Shown here one piece after another: positions 13,157-48,912 of a stretch of DNA of 64,000 bases. Every line of letters starts with the position of its first letter. Position 1 is the stretch's first letter. The position numbers were made by a program, and so were the translations under genes. Origin of the DNA: a virus (Duplodnaviria > Caudoviricetes); the IMG/VR virus record IMGVR_UViG_2934543808_000001, positions 32,001-96,000 of that record. The stretch is one strand, 5' to 3'. Below the pieces are notes generated by a model. The model worked only from the letters and a program-made list of their open reading frames with translations. It made no database searches and had not been told where the DNA came from.

Positions 13157-13209
13157 GTCCCCTTTGATCCGGAGCGTTCGGCGTGACGGTCGCTCGTCCG
13201 TCACTGCCG
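13157..13209 (-). ncRNA. Structured leader C
   Basis: GTGACGG-ACGAGCGA-CCGTCAC..AACGCTCCG..AAAGGGGAC. Confidence 0.7.
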
Positions 13210-13358: not shown

Positions 13359-13419
13359 TGTTGGTCGGCACGAGCGAGCCGCACCGACACCAACGCTCCG
13401 AACCCAACCCGAAGGGGAC
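13359..13419 (+). ncRNA. Structured leader D
   Basis: TGTTGGTCGGC-ACGAGCGA-GCCGCACCGACA..AACGCTCCG..GAAGGGGAC. Confidence 0.7.
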
Positions 13420-34039: not shown

Positions 34040-34270
34040 TCACGGGGAGGGGCGCAGCCGGGCGGACGGAAGCGGGTGCCGGGCAACCCGCATGAACAGG
34101 GGCTCGTCGCCCTTGCGGTTGATCGTGATCGAGCCGCGGCGGCGGCCGGCGCGGAGCACTCTCTCCGTCTCCTCGGCGGGCAGGTCGAGCGCTCGCGCCA
34201 GTTCGTCGGCGCTCAGCCACCGTTGCCACGGCAGCCGGTTGATCCGGTGTGCCACGGGGGCGCCGTTCAT
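34040..34270 (-). CDS. Small winged-HTH protein
   Basis: WLSADELARALDLPAEETERVL; AAGGAGGAGG RBS. Confidence 0.6.
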   Translation of the reverse strand: MNGAPVAHRINRLPWQRWLSADELARALDLPAEETERVLRAGRRRGSITINRKGDEPLFMRVARHPLPSARLRPSP

Positions 34271-34660
34271 GGCGTCCTCCTCCTTGCAGGGTTGCACCCG
34301 GGTTGCTCATCCCCAGGCGTGACCACACACCCTAGTGCACACCACGTCCGGACGGGAGCATGCGACGTGGATCACGGCATGTCGGCGCGGATTCCGGACA
34401 GGGGAGACACGAGCGAACGTCTTGTAACAGTTACGTAACTGGACTACCCGATGCACAGGGTTCGCTCAGCGGACGGCAAGGGATCTTCGTCCTGAATTGC
34501 CCATGTCCGAAGTGGGATGAACCGCGTGGTTCCTATCCAAGGGCACTTTTGCCACACAGGCACGGTTTTCGATCTGACGTGCGATTTCATAGTGGCGAAT
34601 CGCTTCACGGCTGTCGGAAGATTGGCTTCCAGAGGCCGATCAAGACCGAAGCGAGGCGGT

Positions 34661-47000: not shown

Positions 47001-47135
47001 CGCGACGTGCCGACCCCCGCGGGAACCGCAGAGCCCGCGGGGACGGGAGTGGCACGCGCCCCGTCGCGTCACGTCACGTCACGACGGCCGCCCTGTCGAG
47101 CAGCGCGGCACTGCTCGGGGGACGGCCGAGCAAGA

Positions 47136-47710
47136 GGGGTACGGGTCGGTGAGGTCCGCTCGGCGAGGGGTACGCCCGGACCGGGGTACGGGGGGTACGC
47201 CCGCGCGAGGGTGCGGGTACGCCAGCGCATGGGTACGGGGTACGGCCTCAGAGGGGTACGGGGTACGGCCCCGGAGGGGTACGGGGTACGGCGCCGATGC
47301 CCGGGGTACGGGGCACGCCGCTGCAAGGTGCGGTTGCTGCGCGCCGGCCGACTGGGCGCTGTTCCCCGTGGGAACAGCGGAGCCGCAGGCGGCCCTGCGA
47401 ACTCCCTGGAGCAGGACCCCCAGCCCCGTACGGCCCTGTGAGCTGCGATGACGCGCGTACCCCCGCCACGGCGTACCGCGTCCGGTGCACGTACCCGTAC
47501 GCCGTACCCCGTACCTCGGGACGGCCCCGTACCCCGTACCTGCCGCGCGGCCGTACCCCGTACCCGCCGACCCGTACCCCCGCGCACCCTCTGTGCCGAG
47601 GCGTACCCCCGGGAACGGCCGTACCCCGTACTCCCTGCGCGGGGGTACGGGGTACGGATCGTTCAGCGAAGGCGTACCCCTCGGGGAAGGTACGCCTTCG
47701 TAAGGTACGG
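47136..47710. repeat. GGGGTAC/GTACCCC iteron-like field, inverted around a parS-like site
   Basis: About 32 GTAC cores counted by eye; orientation flips at ~47310-47430. Confidence 0.8.
47360..47376. repeat. parS-like palindrome
   Basis: TGTTCCCCGTGGGAACA. Confidence 0.65.
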
Positions 47711-47717
47711 CGTTGCC

Positions 47718-48278
47718 CTACCGACCGGCGGCAGCCGCCTGGGCCGCGTCGCGCTCTTTCCGGCGTTCCTCGGCGGCGAGCCGATCGGCCTCTTCCTCCT
47801 CACGCACCAGCGCAAGGAAGCGCTCCGGGTGCTCGTCGGCCAGTCGCCGGCGCGCGCGGCTGCGGGGACTGCGCTCCGGCAGCAGGTGGCCCCTGCGGGC
47901 CACGATCCCGGCCCAGATGTAGAAGAAGAGCTGGGCCTCCGTCTCGGCCCTGGCGCGGAACTGGTCCAGACGGCGGCGGCGGGCGTTCTCGGACTCACTG
48001 GCTGGAGGCGGCAGGTACTTGTCCGGTTGGGCCAGAAGGTCGGGGATCAGCCGGCGGGCCTTCTTCGTGAGCTGAGGAGATCGGATCGCGTACGCAACCA
48101 CGGGGTCCCGGTCGGCTTCGTCCGCTGAGATGAACGTCGCCAGCACTGCGCCGAACTGCCGGTTGGTGAGGGCGGCGAAGGCGTCGATCTGCGCCTCGAC
48201 GGCCGCGGGGTCCGGCTCCGTCCAATTGCTCTGACGCGAGCCCTTGCCCTCGGGCACGTCTTGCTGCGGTGCCGCCAT
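47718..48278 (-). CDS. Hypothetical helical protein
   Basis: AGGAGG upstream; protein-like ORF. Confidence 0.6.
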   Translation of the reverse strand: MAAPQQDVPEGKGSRQSNWTEPDPAAVEAQIDAFAALTNRQFGAVLATFISADEADRDPVVAYAIRSPQLTKKARRLIPDLLAQPDKYLPPPASESENARRRRLDQFRARAETEAQLFFYIWAGIVARRGHLLPERSPRSRARRRLADEHPERFLALVREEEEADRLAAEERRKERDAAQAAAAGR

Positions 48279-48425
48279 TCCGGCTGGCCCTCCTGGACTC
48301 GATCGTGGCCGGCTGGAGCCGACAGCGGTACGGGCAAGGTGGCCGCCCTGCGACCGATCTCCCCGCGGCCGGATCGTCCCGGATAGCGGCCGGTCCCCGG
48401 CGTTCTGGGCCCGTGGGGCGCAGTG

Positions 48426-48497
48426 TCTTGGGTGGTTCTCGCGCTAACGCTCCGGGGTCAACCCTGAAGGAGGACAAACACCCCAAAGAATCGCGAG
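48426..48497. ncRNA. Orphan structured element matching the 3' half of the leader family
   Basis: AACGCTCCG..GAAGGAGGAC enclosed by a TCTTGGGTG/CACCCCAAAGA stem; no start codon follows. Confidence 0.4.
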
Positions 48498-48588
48498 TCC
48501 ATCGCCTGCGACGGTGAGATCGGCGGCACGGCGGCCACCTAGTGCGGATGATACCCGCGCGGCCCCGCGGGACCGCTATCGAGCAGCC

Positions 48589-48912
48589 CTATTCGGCCGC
48601 TGAGGCGCTTCTCGGACTGGTGACGGACTCGATGGCCGGGGTGACCCCGCTGGGCTTCCAGATCAGATCGTGCGCGCTCTGCGAGACGGCGAGGACGGCT
48701 CCGATCGTGCCGAGCGTGGGAAGGCCGTGCTGGAACTGGTCCAGCCCGCTGGTGGAGACGACGGTGACGACGCCGGCGACCAGGGCCATGACGGCGGCGA
48801 CGATCTTCTTGTTCCGTACGGACCACTCGGGGCGCTGCACGACGGCGGTGATCAGCGGCATGAGGCCGCCGACGGCGGAGCCGGTGCCGATGAGTTGGAG
48901 GGTGGAGGACAT
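48589..48912 (-). CDS. Putative holin
   Basis: 107 aa, 2-3 TM segments, end of the late operon. Confidence 0.65.
   Translation of the reverse strand: MSSTLQLIGTGSAVGGLMPLITAVVQRPEWSVRNKKIVAAVMALVAGVVTVVSTSGLDQFQHGLPTLGTIGAVLAVSQSAHDLIWKPSGVTPAIESVTSPRSASAAE

Follow-up and report, generated by a model that had tools for sequence, protein, structure and literature searches.

A conserved folded RNA domain of Streptomyces phage-plasmids with an arm complementary to the leaders of early operons

Introduction

What is a sequence resembling the 3′ half of an operon leader doing between two genes that are read from the opposite strand? The question arises at positions 48426-48497 of the stretch of DNA analyzed here (hereafter the window, 64,000 nt), which belongs to a 134,012-bp Streptomyces phage-plasmid genome carrying a family of leaders on about ten early operons. 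A first-pass annotation of the window, made from the letters alone, described the site as an orphan structured element, proposed that a minus-strand RNA read from it controls the leader family in trans, and offered a decayed tenth leader as the alternative.

Results

Likeness of the site to the leader family

On the plus strand, AACGCTCCG (48446-48454), the linker CAACCC, and GAAGGAGGAC (48466-48475) follow one another in order, i.e., the site has the tail box (A/C)(A/C)CGCTCC, the linker, and the SD-like tract in common with the ACGAGCGA/AACGCTCC leaders. Unlike these leaders, it has neither the fixed-loop hairpin upstream of the box (8-nt loop ACGAGC(G/A)A), none of the 13 copies of ACGAGCGA in the window lying near 48380-48446, nor a same-strand start codon and gene about 5-12 nt from the SD, the first ATG, GTG, or TTG after the tract being a GTG at about 48514, some 39 nt on. 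Both neighbor genes (47718-48278 and 48589-48912) are on the minus strand. On each of these points the first-pass annotation had read the locus correctly. The SD part of the plus-strand site is weak in three relatives (L001, L042, and L066).

We searched the whole genome with a profile HMM built from the tail-to-start segments (3′ halves) of ten leaders, and the flagged site was the best non-leader match (E 0.023, 12.6 bits, against E 2 for the next one), outranking two of the leaders used for training. In the reverse scan, with the plus strand of the element as query, leaders accounted for seven of the 13 top local alignments, the self-hit at rank 1 counted. Exact copies of AACGCTCCG number 11 in the window: seven in leaders, three inside genes, and the flagged site. 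This 9-mer by itself is not decisive against chance; the likeness to the leaders as a whole, as these comparisons indicate, exceeds it.

The folded RNA domain and its surroundings

Taken alone, the 81-nt element folds no better than its shuffles (z −1.2 on the plus strand, −1.0 on the minus strand). The enclosing stem proposed in the first-pass annotation, between TCTTGGGTG (48426-48434, plus) and CACCCCAAAGA (48479-48489, plus), was rejected, as it crosses the CTCGCG/CGCGAG stem (48438-48443 and 48492-48497, plus) and as L001, L042, and clade B do not retain it. The latter pairing, which the same annotation had listed as an extra, turns out to be the conserved stem, and it co-varies among relatives.

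The element is not a free-standing structure. It is one arm (P2) of a conserved folded RNA domain of about 200 nt found in Streptomyces phage-plasmids, located here at 48337-48540 (204 nt, minus strand), closed by a long-range helix of about 28 bp, and sitting upstream of a conserved 186-aa gene as part of its 5′ leader, between the start of that gene and an invariant GGTATCATCCG block. The fold of 48337-48540 (minus) has a z-score of −4.27, with 0 of 200 shuffles as stable, and that of the orthologue in L037 reaches −7.48. Across 19 orthologues (RNAalifold and pair counts), paired cells make up 98.2%, whereas shuffles give 93.5%, none of 500 reaching the observed value, and the share falls to 33-46% when slid. 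Changes on both sides of a pair were found in 40 cells, against 14.2 in shuffles.

Within the domain, the 5′ arm of the closing helix P1 (48513-48540, minus; MFE) pairs with its 3′ arm (48337-48364, minus; RNAalifold and MFE), and seven of the pairs are changed on both sides. P2 (48438-48497, minus) is built on a basal stem of CUCGCG (48497-48492) with CGCGAG (48443-48438), which is CUGCUGG/CCAGCAG in clade B and of CCGCGG type in other clade A members. P2 contains an anti-tail, CGGAGCGUU (48446-48454, minus; the complement of leader AACGCUCCG), whose GGAG is paired with the U/C-rich 5′ strand in the middle stem, with CGUU in an internal loop on the 3′ side. At the apex lies an anti-SD pyrimidine tract, GUCCUCCUUC (48466-48475, minus; the complement of leader GAAGG(A)GGAC), which is pyrimidine-rich across clade A, but not fixed in sequence; for clade B, 3 of 11 have the CCUCC tract replaced, each time together with compensation. 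P3 is a small hairpin (48405-48423, minus; MFE) that varies from GCCCC-UUCG-GGGC in L036 and GCCC-GCGA-GGGC in L042 to GCGC...GCGC in clade B and is deleted in L001 and L075. The P4/P5 hairpins around CCGGGACGAUCCGG (48366-48401, minus) correspond to the RNAalifold helices at columns 170-204, where 11 rows have GC and eight have CG at pair 179/193, and pairs 180/192 and 181/191 are G.U-rich. Rfam 15 returned no match in the whole window at gathering thresholds; at E ≤ 10, three chance-level matches were seen in 48200-48650 (E 1.9-5.6, 10-16 bits, against thresholds of 36-96). A tRNA/tmRNA scan gave no match.

The GGTATCATCCG block (48545-48555, minus) contains the TATCAT hexamer (48548-48553, ATGATA on the plus strand) to which the first-pass annotation had drawn attention as −10-like, and this hexamer belongs to the part that is invariant across every orthologue seen. 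The block is identical in 19/19 rows of our alignment A3, 16 loci having been ascertained through the block itself; GGTATCATCC also occurs in all nine loci that only the protein had led to (L004, L005, and L174-L180), and the GGTATCATCC/GGTATCATCCG block occurs once in the 134-kb genome. It may be a promoter or may mark the 5′ boundary of the domain, the promoter role being only inferred because a consensus scan of 48150-48750 gave no sigma-70-type site. No intrinsic terminator (GC-rich hairpin and T run) was found on either strand of the same interval.

The gene upstream of the domain (48589-48912, minus) encodes a 107-aa membrane protein and is the last gene of the late operon. A terminator-like hairpin that lies past its stop codon and ahead of the GGTATCAT block was considered and rejected: five of the six relatives folded have it, but it is not significant (z +0.7 to −2.7). 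Downstream, the 186-aa gene (47718-48278, minus) begins with ATG at 48278-48276, preceded by the SD GGAGGG at 48294-48289. Its product is all-helical (AlphaFold2 mean pLDDT 83.8) and has 39 homologues, all named hypothetical and mostly on contigs of 125-138 kb. It has no Pfam or PHROG family and no usable Atlas match, and a Foldseek search of its AlphaFold2 model against the PDB gave nothing at E ≤ 0.001. The gene adjoins a GTAC iteron and parS-like field. Among the listed sequencing runs, none was of RNA from the strain. Short soil contigs with 1-7 differences cover parts of the region (e.g., 48181-48512 and 48370-48526) and carry no strand, ends, or level; they come from four runs of one study, labelled metatranscriptomic yet flagged "probably DNA", and were given no weight.

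Distribution of the domain and co-occurrence with the leaders

At least 22 related elements, some plasmid-like and others integrated, carry the domain. For most of the viral relatives, ascertainment was by a pattern in the GGTATCATCCG...GGTGGCC block. DNA and protein searches of plasmids gave one related record, and the same searches of a phage set gave none. In 401 Streptomyces genomes, BLAST gave weak matches in 204, among which were seven true loci, and a pattern search of 400 further genomes of the family added no locus. A metagenome pattern scan yielded no true homologue in the 80 of 81 stretches screened, and no viral contigs with the single protein were found.

Within P2, the GGAGCG of the anti-tail is invariant in all eight clade A rows of the alignment, although the strand with which it pairs varies, and its presence in L175 and L179 brings the count to 10/10 clade A orthologues seen. 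Clade A neighbor-protein identities go down to 47-49%, and the loop sequence around GGAGCG is unalignable. The CG(U/G)(U/C) that follows GGAGCG is mostly unpaired in 8/8 folds.

The GGAGCG arm and the leaders occur together. In the clade with ACGAGCGA-hairpin/AACGCUCC leaders on its early operons, P2 keeps about 30 nt complementary to tail, linker, and SD. Leaders were found in eight of nine elements examined whose P2 carries GGAGCG (G000, G001, W01, G002, G405, G407, G787, and G788). The one miss was G406, a fragment whose completeness is rated at 39%; in G408, a tenth record and likewise a fragment, at 43%, three leader-pattern matches and no control-pattern match were seen. Conversely, where P2 lacks GGAGCG, no leaders above the control count were seen in any of 12 records or genomes (G402-404, G409-411, G789, G192, G137, G245, G062, and G127). 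These relatives without leaders retain the domain, yet without GGAGCG. A separate leader family matching clade B was looked for with the P2 of the G245 provirus as query over 120 kb around it and was not found, the scan returning background only (top score 18, 99.9th percentile 16). The co-occurrence counts as one event because it follows a single clade split. The domain is older than the leader family, and the P2 of the leader-bearing clade gained its complementarity later.

This history bears on whether the likeness has any function. P2 could hold an inverted leader 3′ half that an older hairpin took up in its loop and that has no function of its own, with the domain acting only in cis, through mRNA stability, an RNase III site, or the binding of its own protein. 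Such a relic would fit with the missing hairpin and start codon, the poorly conserved SD part, an arm that alone folds no better than shuffles, and a clade B domain that works without any leader likeness. We nevertheless regard it as very doubtful, since GGAGCG has stayed invariant in 10/10 clade A orthologues while the surrounding loop cannot be aligned, and since the flanking bases and linker follow those of the element's own leaders (see below), from which a neutral relic would drift away. Conservation and co-variation likewise disfavor the decayed tenth leader of the first-pass annotation.

The probable functional strand

The minus strand is most likely the functional one, based on the counts of G.U versus A.C cells and on fold energies. 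In P1/P4, 70 G.U cells at 11 pair positions compare with 5 A.C cells at four, and in P2 61 G.U cells compare with 3 A.C cells. Of the 19 domains, 18 fold more stably on the minus strand (mean difference −16 kcal/mol), as do all 19 P2 arms (mean −8.7), and the alifold energy is −45.8 on the minus strand against −28.9 on the plus strand. In L175, a clade A orthologue, the plus-strand fold is slightly the better of the two.

Co-variation and predicted pairing with the leaders

Read from this strand, the arm is complementary to the leader tail and SD, as the first-pass annotation had noted, and it also covers the linker between them. In 6/6 elements, the minus-strand RNA of P2 is predicted to form duplexes with the element's own leaders at z −5 to −13. 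The element's own leader set is the best partner in three of the six and the second best in the other three, where another element's leaders score slightly better, and the matrix of duplex energies separates into two blocks, {G000, W01, G405, G787} and {G002, G788}. Chance resemblance in GC-rich DNA, to which the three exact copies of AACGCTCCG inside window genes and the commonness of SD-like purine tracts might point, is extremely improbable given these duplex scores, the gap between the HMM match and the next one, and the conservation of the box at the orthologous position in 10/10 clade A loci.

The bases flanking the tail box change together in P2 and in the leaders. The leader base after CGCUCC, by plurality, is G/G/G/A/C in five elements, with a tie of C and G in G788; complementing P2 gives G/G/G/A/C/C. 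Just ahead of CGCUCC, four elements have A and two have C, in P2 and leaders alike. This sample comprises six elements in two sub-clades and about two independent events. In W01, all seven leader loops read ACGAGCAA, yet P2 retains GGAGCG; P2 therefore follows the leader tail and not the hairpin loop, and a role of P2 as a mimic of the leader loop was rejected. Both co-occurrence and co-variation with the leaders are thus observed in related elements, as the first-pass annotation had proposed to check. Of its interpretation, the minus strand and the complementarity have held up; the orphan status and the enclosing stem have not.

Likeness on the sense strand and complementarity on the antisense strand are, however, one fact, so that a shared protein-binding site or gene conversion could match the same pattern. 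The tail-linker-SD segment may be bound by the element-encoded factor that also works at the leaders, either as double-stranded DNA, in which case orientation is immaterial, or as plus-strand RNA. P2 would then hold the eleventh copy of the site, which would bring the 186-aa gene into the leader regulon, or a decoy, the co-variation reflecting changed protein specificity instead of RNA-RNA pairing. The match is equally a sense-strand match, and flanking bases that shift together at many unlinked leaders do call for some common trans factor. We still consider a protein site unlikely for several reasons: the tail-to-SD distance is not constant within one element, its leaders ranging from about 0 to 14 nt, which is easier to reconcile with RNA pairing by two segments than with a rigid footprint on DNA; the stems of the leader hairpins co-vary, which indicates that the leaders act as RNA; and the site sits in a helix-forming arm whose G.U bias favors the opposite strand, with no plus-strand gene or promoter found nearby.

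In predicted cofolds, the leader hairpin is preserved in the dimer, the anti-tail pairs with the tail in 10/10 leaders, and the pyrimidine tract pairs with the SD region in 9/10, the leader at 13178 being the exception. P2 is itself well paired, and when the cost of unfolding it is charged, the predicted ddG is −7 to −25 kcal/mol, a pairing that beats all 30 shuffled-P2 controls in only five of the ten leaders and is no better than the shuffle mean in two.

P2 shows no special complementarity to the RBS of its own gene in 8/8 clade A rows (z −0.4 to +1.7), and a role as a cis anti-SD was therefore rejected for clade A; in clade B such a role is weak (z −0.2 to −4.3). The same result bears on the possibility that P2 works as a sensor, i.e., that abundant early leader transcripts open the domain and alter the translation or stability of the 186-aa mRNA. 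Complementarity and co-variation would be the same as for antisense control of the leaders, P2 lies within an mRNA leader with no terminator found before the gene, and the ten or so leader species would outnumber one P2 RNA. A sensor nevertheless appears distinctly unlikely: opening P2 would be without obvious effect on the SD of the gene in clade A, the sequence gives no clue to which partner regulates the other, and the domain is unchanged in the leaderless clade B.

Discussion

What the analysis shows directly is that the site matches the leaders in sequence, that it belongs to a structured domain with a strand bias, and that it co-occurs and co-varies with the leaders. As an explanation of these findings we tentatively favor, at a probability of roughly 0.45, that P2 is an antisense RNA carried in a 5′ leader and complementary to the leaders of about ten early operons. 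From the above we infer how such an RNA would be transcribed and processed, how it would pair in the cell, and in which direction it would act. The domain would be read from the minus strand as the 5′ leader of the 186-aa gene, starting just downstream of the GGTATCATCCG block, and the RNA could act while still in this leader or once cut out at the 28-bp closing helix. It would act in trans, pairing with the leaders over their single-stranded 3′ half, P2 GGAGCGUU being the segment matched to the leader tail, and pairing may start at two places, the CGUU internal loop, which is exposed, and the pyrimidine loop at the apex. By covering the RBS, the paired RNA would lower the translation or stability of about ten early operons, providing an RNA layer of immunity whose specificity may diverge between sub-clades. 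That a master antisense RNA, excised at the closing helix (e.g., by RNase III), binds the tail and RBS of all ten or so leaders together and that matched drift sets inter-immunity among Streptomyces phage-plasmids, which would amount to an RNA-based multi-operon immunity system in actinomycete phage-plasmids, appears rather unlikely. Antisense control of the leaders also yields a prediction for L071, namely that, given its P2, the leaders in its element should end in AACGCUCCC.

The closest parallels come from known immunity RNAs. C4, from the immI region of phages P1 and P7, is an antisense RNA in an operon leader of a plasmid-prophage; it acts via two short segments complementary to its target, including the RBS, and specificity differences between related elements correspond to matched base changes in RNA and target. 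P2, too, is carried in a leader of a plasmid-prophage and has two short segments that complement its candidate targets, their RBS included; matched changes in RNA and target, here over about two independent events, may also bear on its specificity. The layouts differ, however: C4 has one target, downstream in its own transcript and ahead of icd-ant, whereas P2 has about ten unlinked candidate leaders and its own RBS is not its target. There is no sequence or Rfam relationship between the two, and the host of P2 is an actinomycete. In the CI RNA of satellite phage P4, seqB pairs with seqA/seqC, and this RNA is derived from a leader, like the immunity RNAs of N15-type phage-plasmids. P2 shares with these an RNA derived from an untranslated leader that would pair with repeated complementary boxes. 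The P4 CI and N15-type RNAs act by premature termination on their own operon through two boxes, whereas the boxes matched by P2 overlap the SD of many operons, and termination of the P4 CI type is not indicated for P2. P22 sar and lambda OOP are phage antisense RNAs that form a second layer of developmental control and are cis-encoded and fully complementary to one overlapping gene (PMC5415839). Unlike sar and OOP, P2 would be trans-encoded, partly complementary, and multi-target.

Among the papers listed in searches on Streptomyces phage-plasmids and phage antisense immunity RNAs, none was found on this element. To our knowledge, antisense immunity RNAs come from a few enterobacterial phages and phage-plasmids, each acting on a single operon. 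If our reading is true, one RNA arm matched to the leaders of about ten operons would be a different layout, a regulon-wide RNA switch, within a family of 125-137-kb Streptomyces elements whose control circuits are undescribed. The leader family, for its part, gains a concrete candidate partner. Antisense action aside, the domain of about 200 nt is a structured RNA that is conserved, has no match among Rfam families, and is carried by at least 22 elements.

Likeness of the element to the leaders

On its plus strand, the element (48426–48497) resembles the 3′ halves of a family of ribosome-binding leaders of early operons, which has ten clear copies in the genome, each consisting of a hairpin, a 7–13-nt spacer, AACGCTCC, a linker of ~0–14 nt, a Shine–Dalgarno sequence (SD), and a start codon. 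All positions reported for it in the first-pass annotation were correct on re-check. The shared 9-mer on its own is unconvincing because three further exact copies sit within genes. The match to the leader at 13392 goes past this 9-mer (AACGCTCCG-GGGT-CAACCC-T-GAAGG-A-GGACA in the element, AACGCTCCG-AACC-CAACCC-GAAGG-GGACA in the leader), and when a profile HMM built from the 3′ halves of all ten leaders was searched against the whole genome, the element was the top non-leader match (E 0.023, 12.6 bits), scoring above two training-set leaders, with the second non-leader match at E 2. We consider it very improbable that this likeness arose by chance. Membership of the leader family was rejected, since the element has no hairpin, no start codon, and no gene on its own strand.

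Genomic context and orthologous spacers

The element lies in a 310-nt spacer flanked by the last late gene (48589–48912, minus strand; 107 aa) and a 186-aa gene (47718–48278, minus strand). The 134,012-bp source record has direct terminal repeats and encodes phage tail genes, an ERF recombinase, and an IstB-like ATPase; among named sequences, Streptomyces plasmids of ~125–133 kb are closest to it. On these grounds, it was treated as a Streptomyces phage-plasmid. The 186-aa protein has an all-helical predicted model (mean pLDDT 83.8), for which no family or structural match was found, and gives no help with the interpretation. Directly 3′ of its gene is a non-coding GTAC-repeat field (47066–47709), visible as repeated RGTGYG-type translations; this field and the gene, which is served by a structured leader, may be related.

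Orthologous loci were reached by BLAST in plasmids (L001), through the neighboring protein in genome contigs (L004, L005), by BLAST in 401 Streptomyces genomes (L036–L042), by scanning viral contigs for a DNA pattern (13 loci, 11 of them true), and by protein alignment in viral contigs (L174–L180). Nineteen spacers were aligned from GGTATCATCC through the ATG, with ~25 more elements, known from their proteins, outside the comparison. The spacers form two clades: clade A (8 rows, plus L175 and L179) comes from elements of 94–137 kb or their fragments, and clade B (11 rows) from proviral records of 62–70 kb or chromosomal loci. Elements of the L076/G405 type also carry the TATCAT hexamer, a hairpin-rich spacer, and an orphan CAACGCTCC box. 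L180:5600–6010 (G789), whose neighboring protein shows 38% identity, carries a third version of this 5′ leader. Here AGCGCUCCG pairs with CGGAG..GAGCG to form the P2 stem, which puts the tail-like box on the minus-strand RNA itself; the record is 48% complete, and no leaders turned up in it.

A predicted minus-strand RNA domain

By itself, the 81-nt element folds no better than shuffled sequences on either strand (z about −1). RNAalifold places it as arm P2 (48438–48497) of a 204-nt domain, in which a long-range helix, P1 (48513–48540 with 48337–48364), encloses P2, a small hairpin (P3), and P4/P5. This fold reached z −4.27 in the window and −7.48 in L037, with 0/200 shuffles as good for either. 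Paired cells amounted to 98.2% vs 93.5% in shuffles (0/500 as high), falling to 33–46% with the partner slid by 1–3 columns, and seven pairs and 40 cells had changes on both sides, where shuffles gave 4.7 and 14.2, respectively, all with a structure derived from the same sequences, themselves only two clades. The whole spacer domain (48337–48540, minus strand) and its aligned orthologues thus appear as a conserved multi-helix RNA, ~200 nt long, which a 28-bp helix closes and which phage-plasmids of 125–137 kb share with integrated proviruses of ~65 kb without the leader family; it matched no Rfam family. That the likeness of P2 to the leaders is a functionless relic appears unlikely to us.

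Several measures point to the minus strand. In P1/P4, G·U occupied 70 cells at 11 pair positions vs 5 cells at 4 for A·C, and in P2 the corresponding cells were 24 vs 1 (clade A) and 37 vs 2 (clade B). The minus-strand RNA was the more stable in 18/19 rows for the domain (mean difference −16 kcal/mol) and in 19/19 for P2 (mean −8.7), with a consensus energy of −45.8 vs −28.9 kcal/mol for the plus strand; L175, added later, is an exception (minus −117.6, plus −121.2). Contigs from soil runs are possibly DNA and give no indication of strand. The TATCAT hexamer sits within a block, GGTATCATCCG, identical in all 19 rows, and the domain starts 8–9 nt after the hexamer. GGTATCATCC is unique in the genome and was found in all nine loci reached via protein alone, so its presence is not merely an artefact of the search route. 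A scan around the element yielded neither a consensus promoter nor a terminator. Two copies of GCTGGTATCAACCTTGATAG, which holds the palindrome TATCAACCTTGATA and matches GGTATCATCC with one mismatch, occur at genome positions 20079 (plus) and 98613 (minus), i.e., −11921 and 66613, both beyond the window.

The enclosing stem proposed in the first-pass annotation lacks conservation and also crosses the CTCGCG/CGCGAG pairing. That pairing, likewise proposed there, held up as the basal stem of P2, becoming CCGCGG-type in other clade A members and CUGCUGG/CCAGCAG in clade B. All eight clade A folds share this basal stem, a 3′-side internal loop with CG(U/G)(U/C), a middle stem of GGAG paired with a variable U/C-rich strand, and a pyrimidine tract at the apex. 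GGAGCG is invariant in the eight rows despite its varying pairing partner, and is also found in L175 and L179. Clade B P2 is longer, well supported (both-side changes at 8/23 pairs), and without GGAGCG; in 3/11 rows CCUCC becomes CGACC or CGGCC with compensating changes. The clade B arm is conserved as structure, not as anti-SD sequence. In clade A, P2 showed no complementarity to its own ribosome-binding site (z −0.4 to +1.7).

Co-variation and predicted pairing with the leaders

The leader pattern was present in 8/9 examined elements with a GGAGCG-bearing P2 (G000, G001, W01, G002, G405, G407, G787, and G788). The one without it was G406, a fragment rated 39% complete. In G408, likewise a fragment (rated 43% complete), there were three leader-pattern matches vs zero control-pattern matches. 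Where P2 was without GGAGCG, leader-pattern matches did not exceed the reversed-pattern control in any of 12 records or genomes (seven fragments rated ~47–53% complete and five whole genomes). This split tracks one clade boundary and so counts as one event.

P2 also followed the leaders in sequence. Predicted duplexes of minus-strand P2 RNA with its own leaders had mean energies of −39 to −47 kcal/mol, vs −28 to −34 for shuffled P2 (z −5 to −13 in 6/6 elements), and its own leader set was the best partner for three of the six arms and second best for the other three. The duplex matrix fell into two blocks, {G000, W01, G405, G787} and {G002, G788}, with cross-block energies near shuffle level. 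For the base that follows CGCUCC, the leader plurality is G, G, G, A, and C across five elements, and the leaders tie between C and G in G788; the P2 complement has G, G, G, A, C, and C. For the base that precedes CGCUCC, leaders and P2 agree, with A in four of the elements and C in the other two. In the linker, too, P2 tracks the leaders (CAACCC in G000, CAACCAG in G405, CCCACCAGA in G002). Both the co-occurrence and the co-variation proposed as a check in the first-pass annotation were seen, the former as one event and the comparison as a whole resting on few independent lineages. A protein site shared by P2 and the leaders would be another reading of this likeness, to which we give a rather low probability.

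The leader hairpin stem co-varies around a loop, ACGAGC(G/A)A. In W01 (NZ_CP107821.1; L006–L012), 7/7 loops are ACGAGCAA, not ACGAGCGA, with the tail still CGCTCC; the tail thus has no change compensating for this G-to-A substitution, making a loop–tail pseudoknot in the leaders less credible. Tracking of the leader loop by P2 was ruled out, as W01 P2 keeps GGAGCG.

When P2 was cofolded with the ten full-length leaders one by one, the leader hairpin was retained in the minimum-energy dimer. CGGAGCGUU paired with AACGCUCCG in 10/10 dimers, and in 9/10 the SD region paired with the pyrimidine tract (the exception being the leader at 13178). With P2’s own fold charged, ddG lay between −7.1 and −24.6 kcal/mol; it was more favorable than every one of the 30 shuffled-P2 controls for five leaders and no better than the shuffle mean for two. 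Pairing is therefore plausible, not overwhelming, and may require loop-initiated contacts or a helper. A ribosome-binding region at ~34270–34312 (minus strand; GCAACCCTGCAAGGAGGAGGACGCCATG) is similar to the element over its linker and SD, but has no tail box. The sole non-leader in the top seven matches of the P2 scan, it may be either an additional target or a coincidental match.

Relation to known RNA regulators

Taken together, an RNA–RNA relationship between the predicted P2-bearing minus-strand RNA and the leaders’ 3′ halves fits best. The reverse direction, with leaders acting on the P2-bearing RNA, seems to us rather unlikely; regulation of the leaders by a predicted P2 RNA is our favored, still tentative reading (probability around 0.45). 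The C4 RNA of P1/P7 and the CI RNA of P4 are leader-derived immunity RNAs, and the P2 RNA, as read here, would work most like these. Unlike C4 and CI, whose target is in the same transcript, a feature that P2 does not share, it would have about ten unlinked targets.
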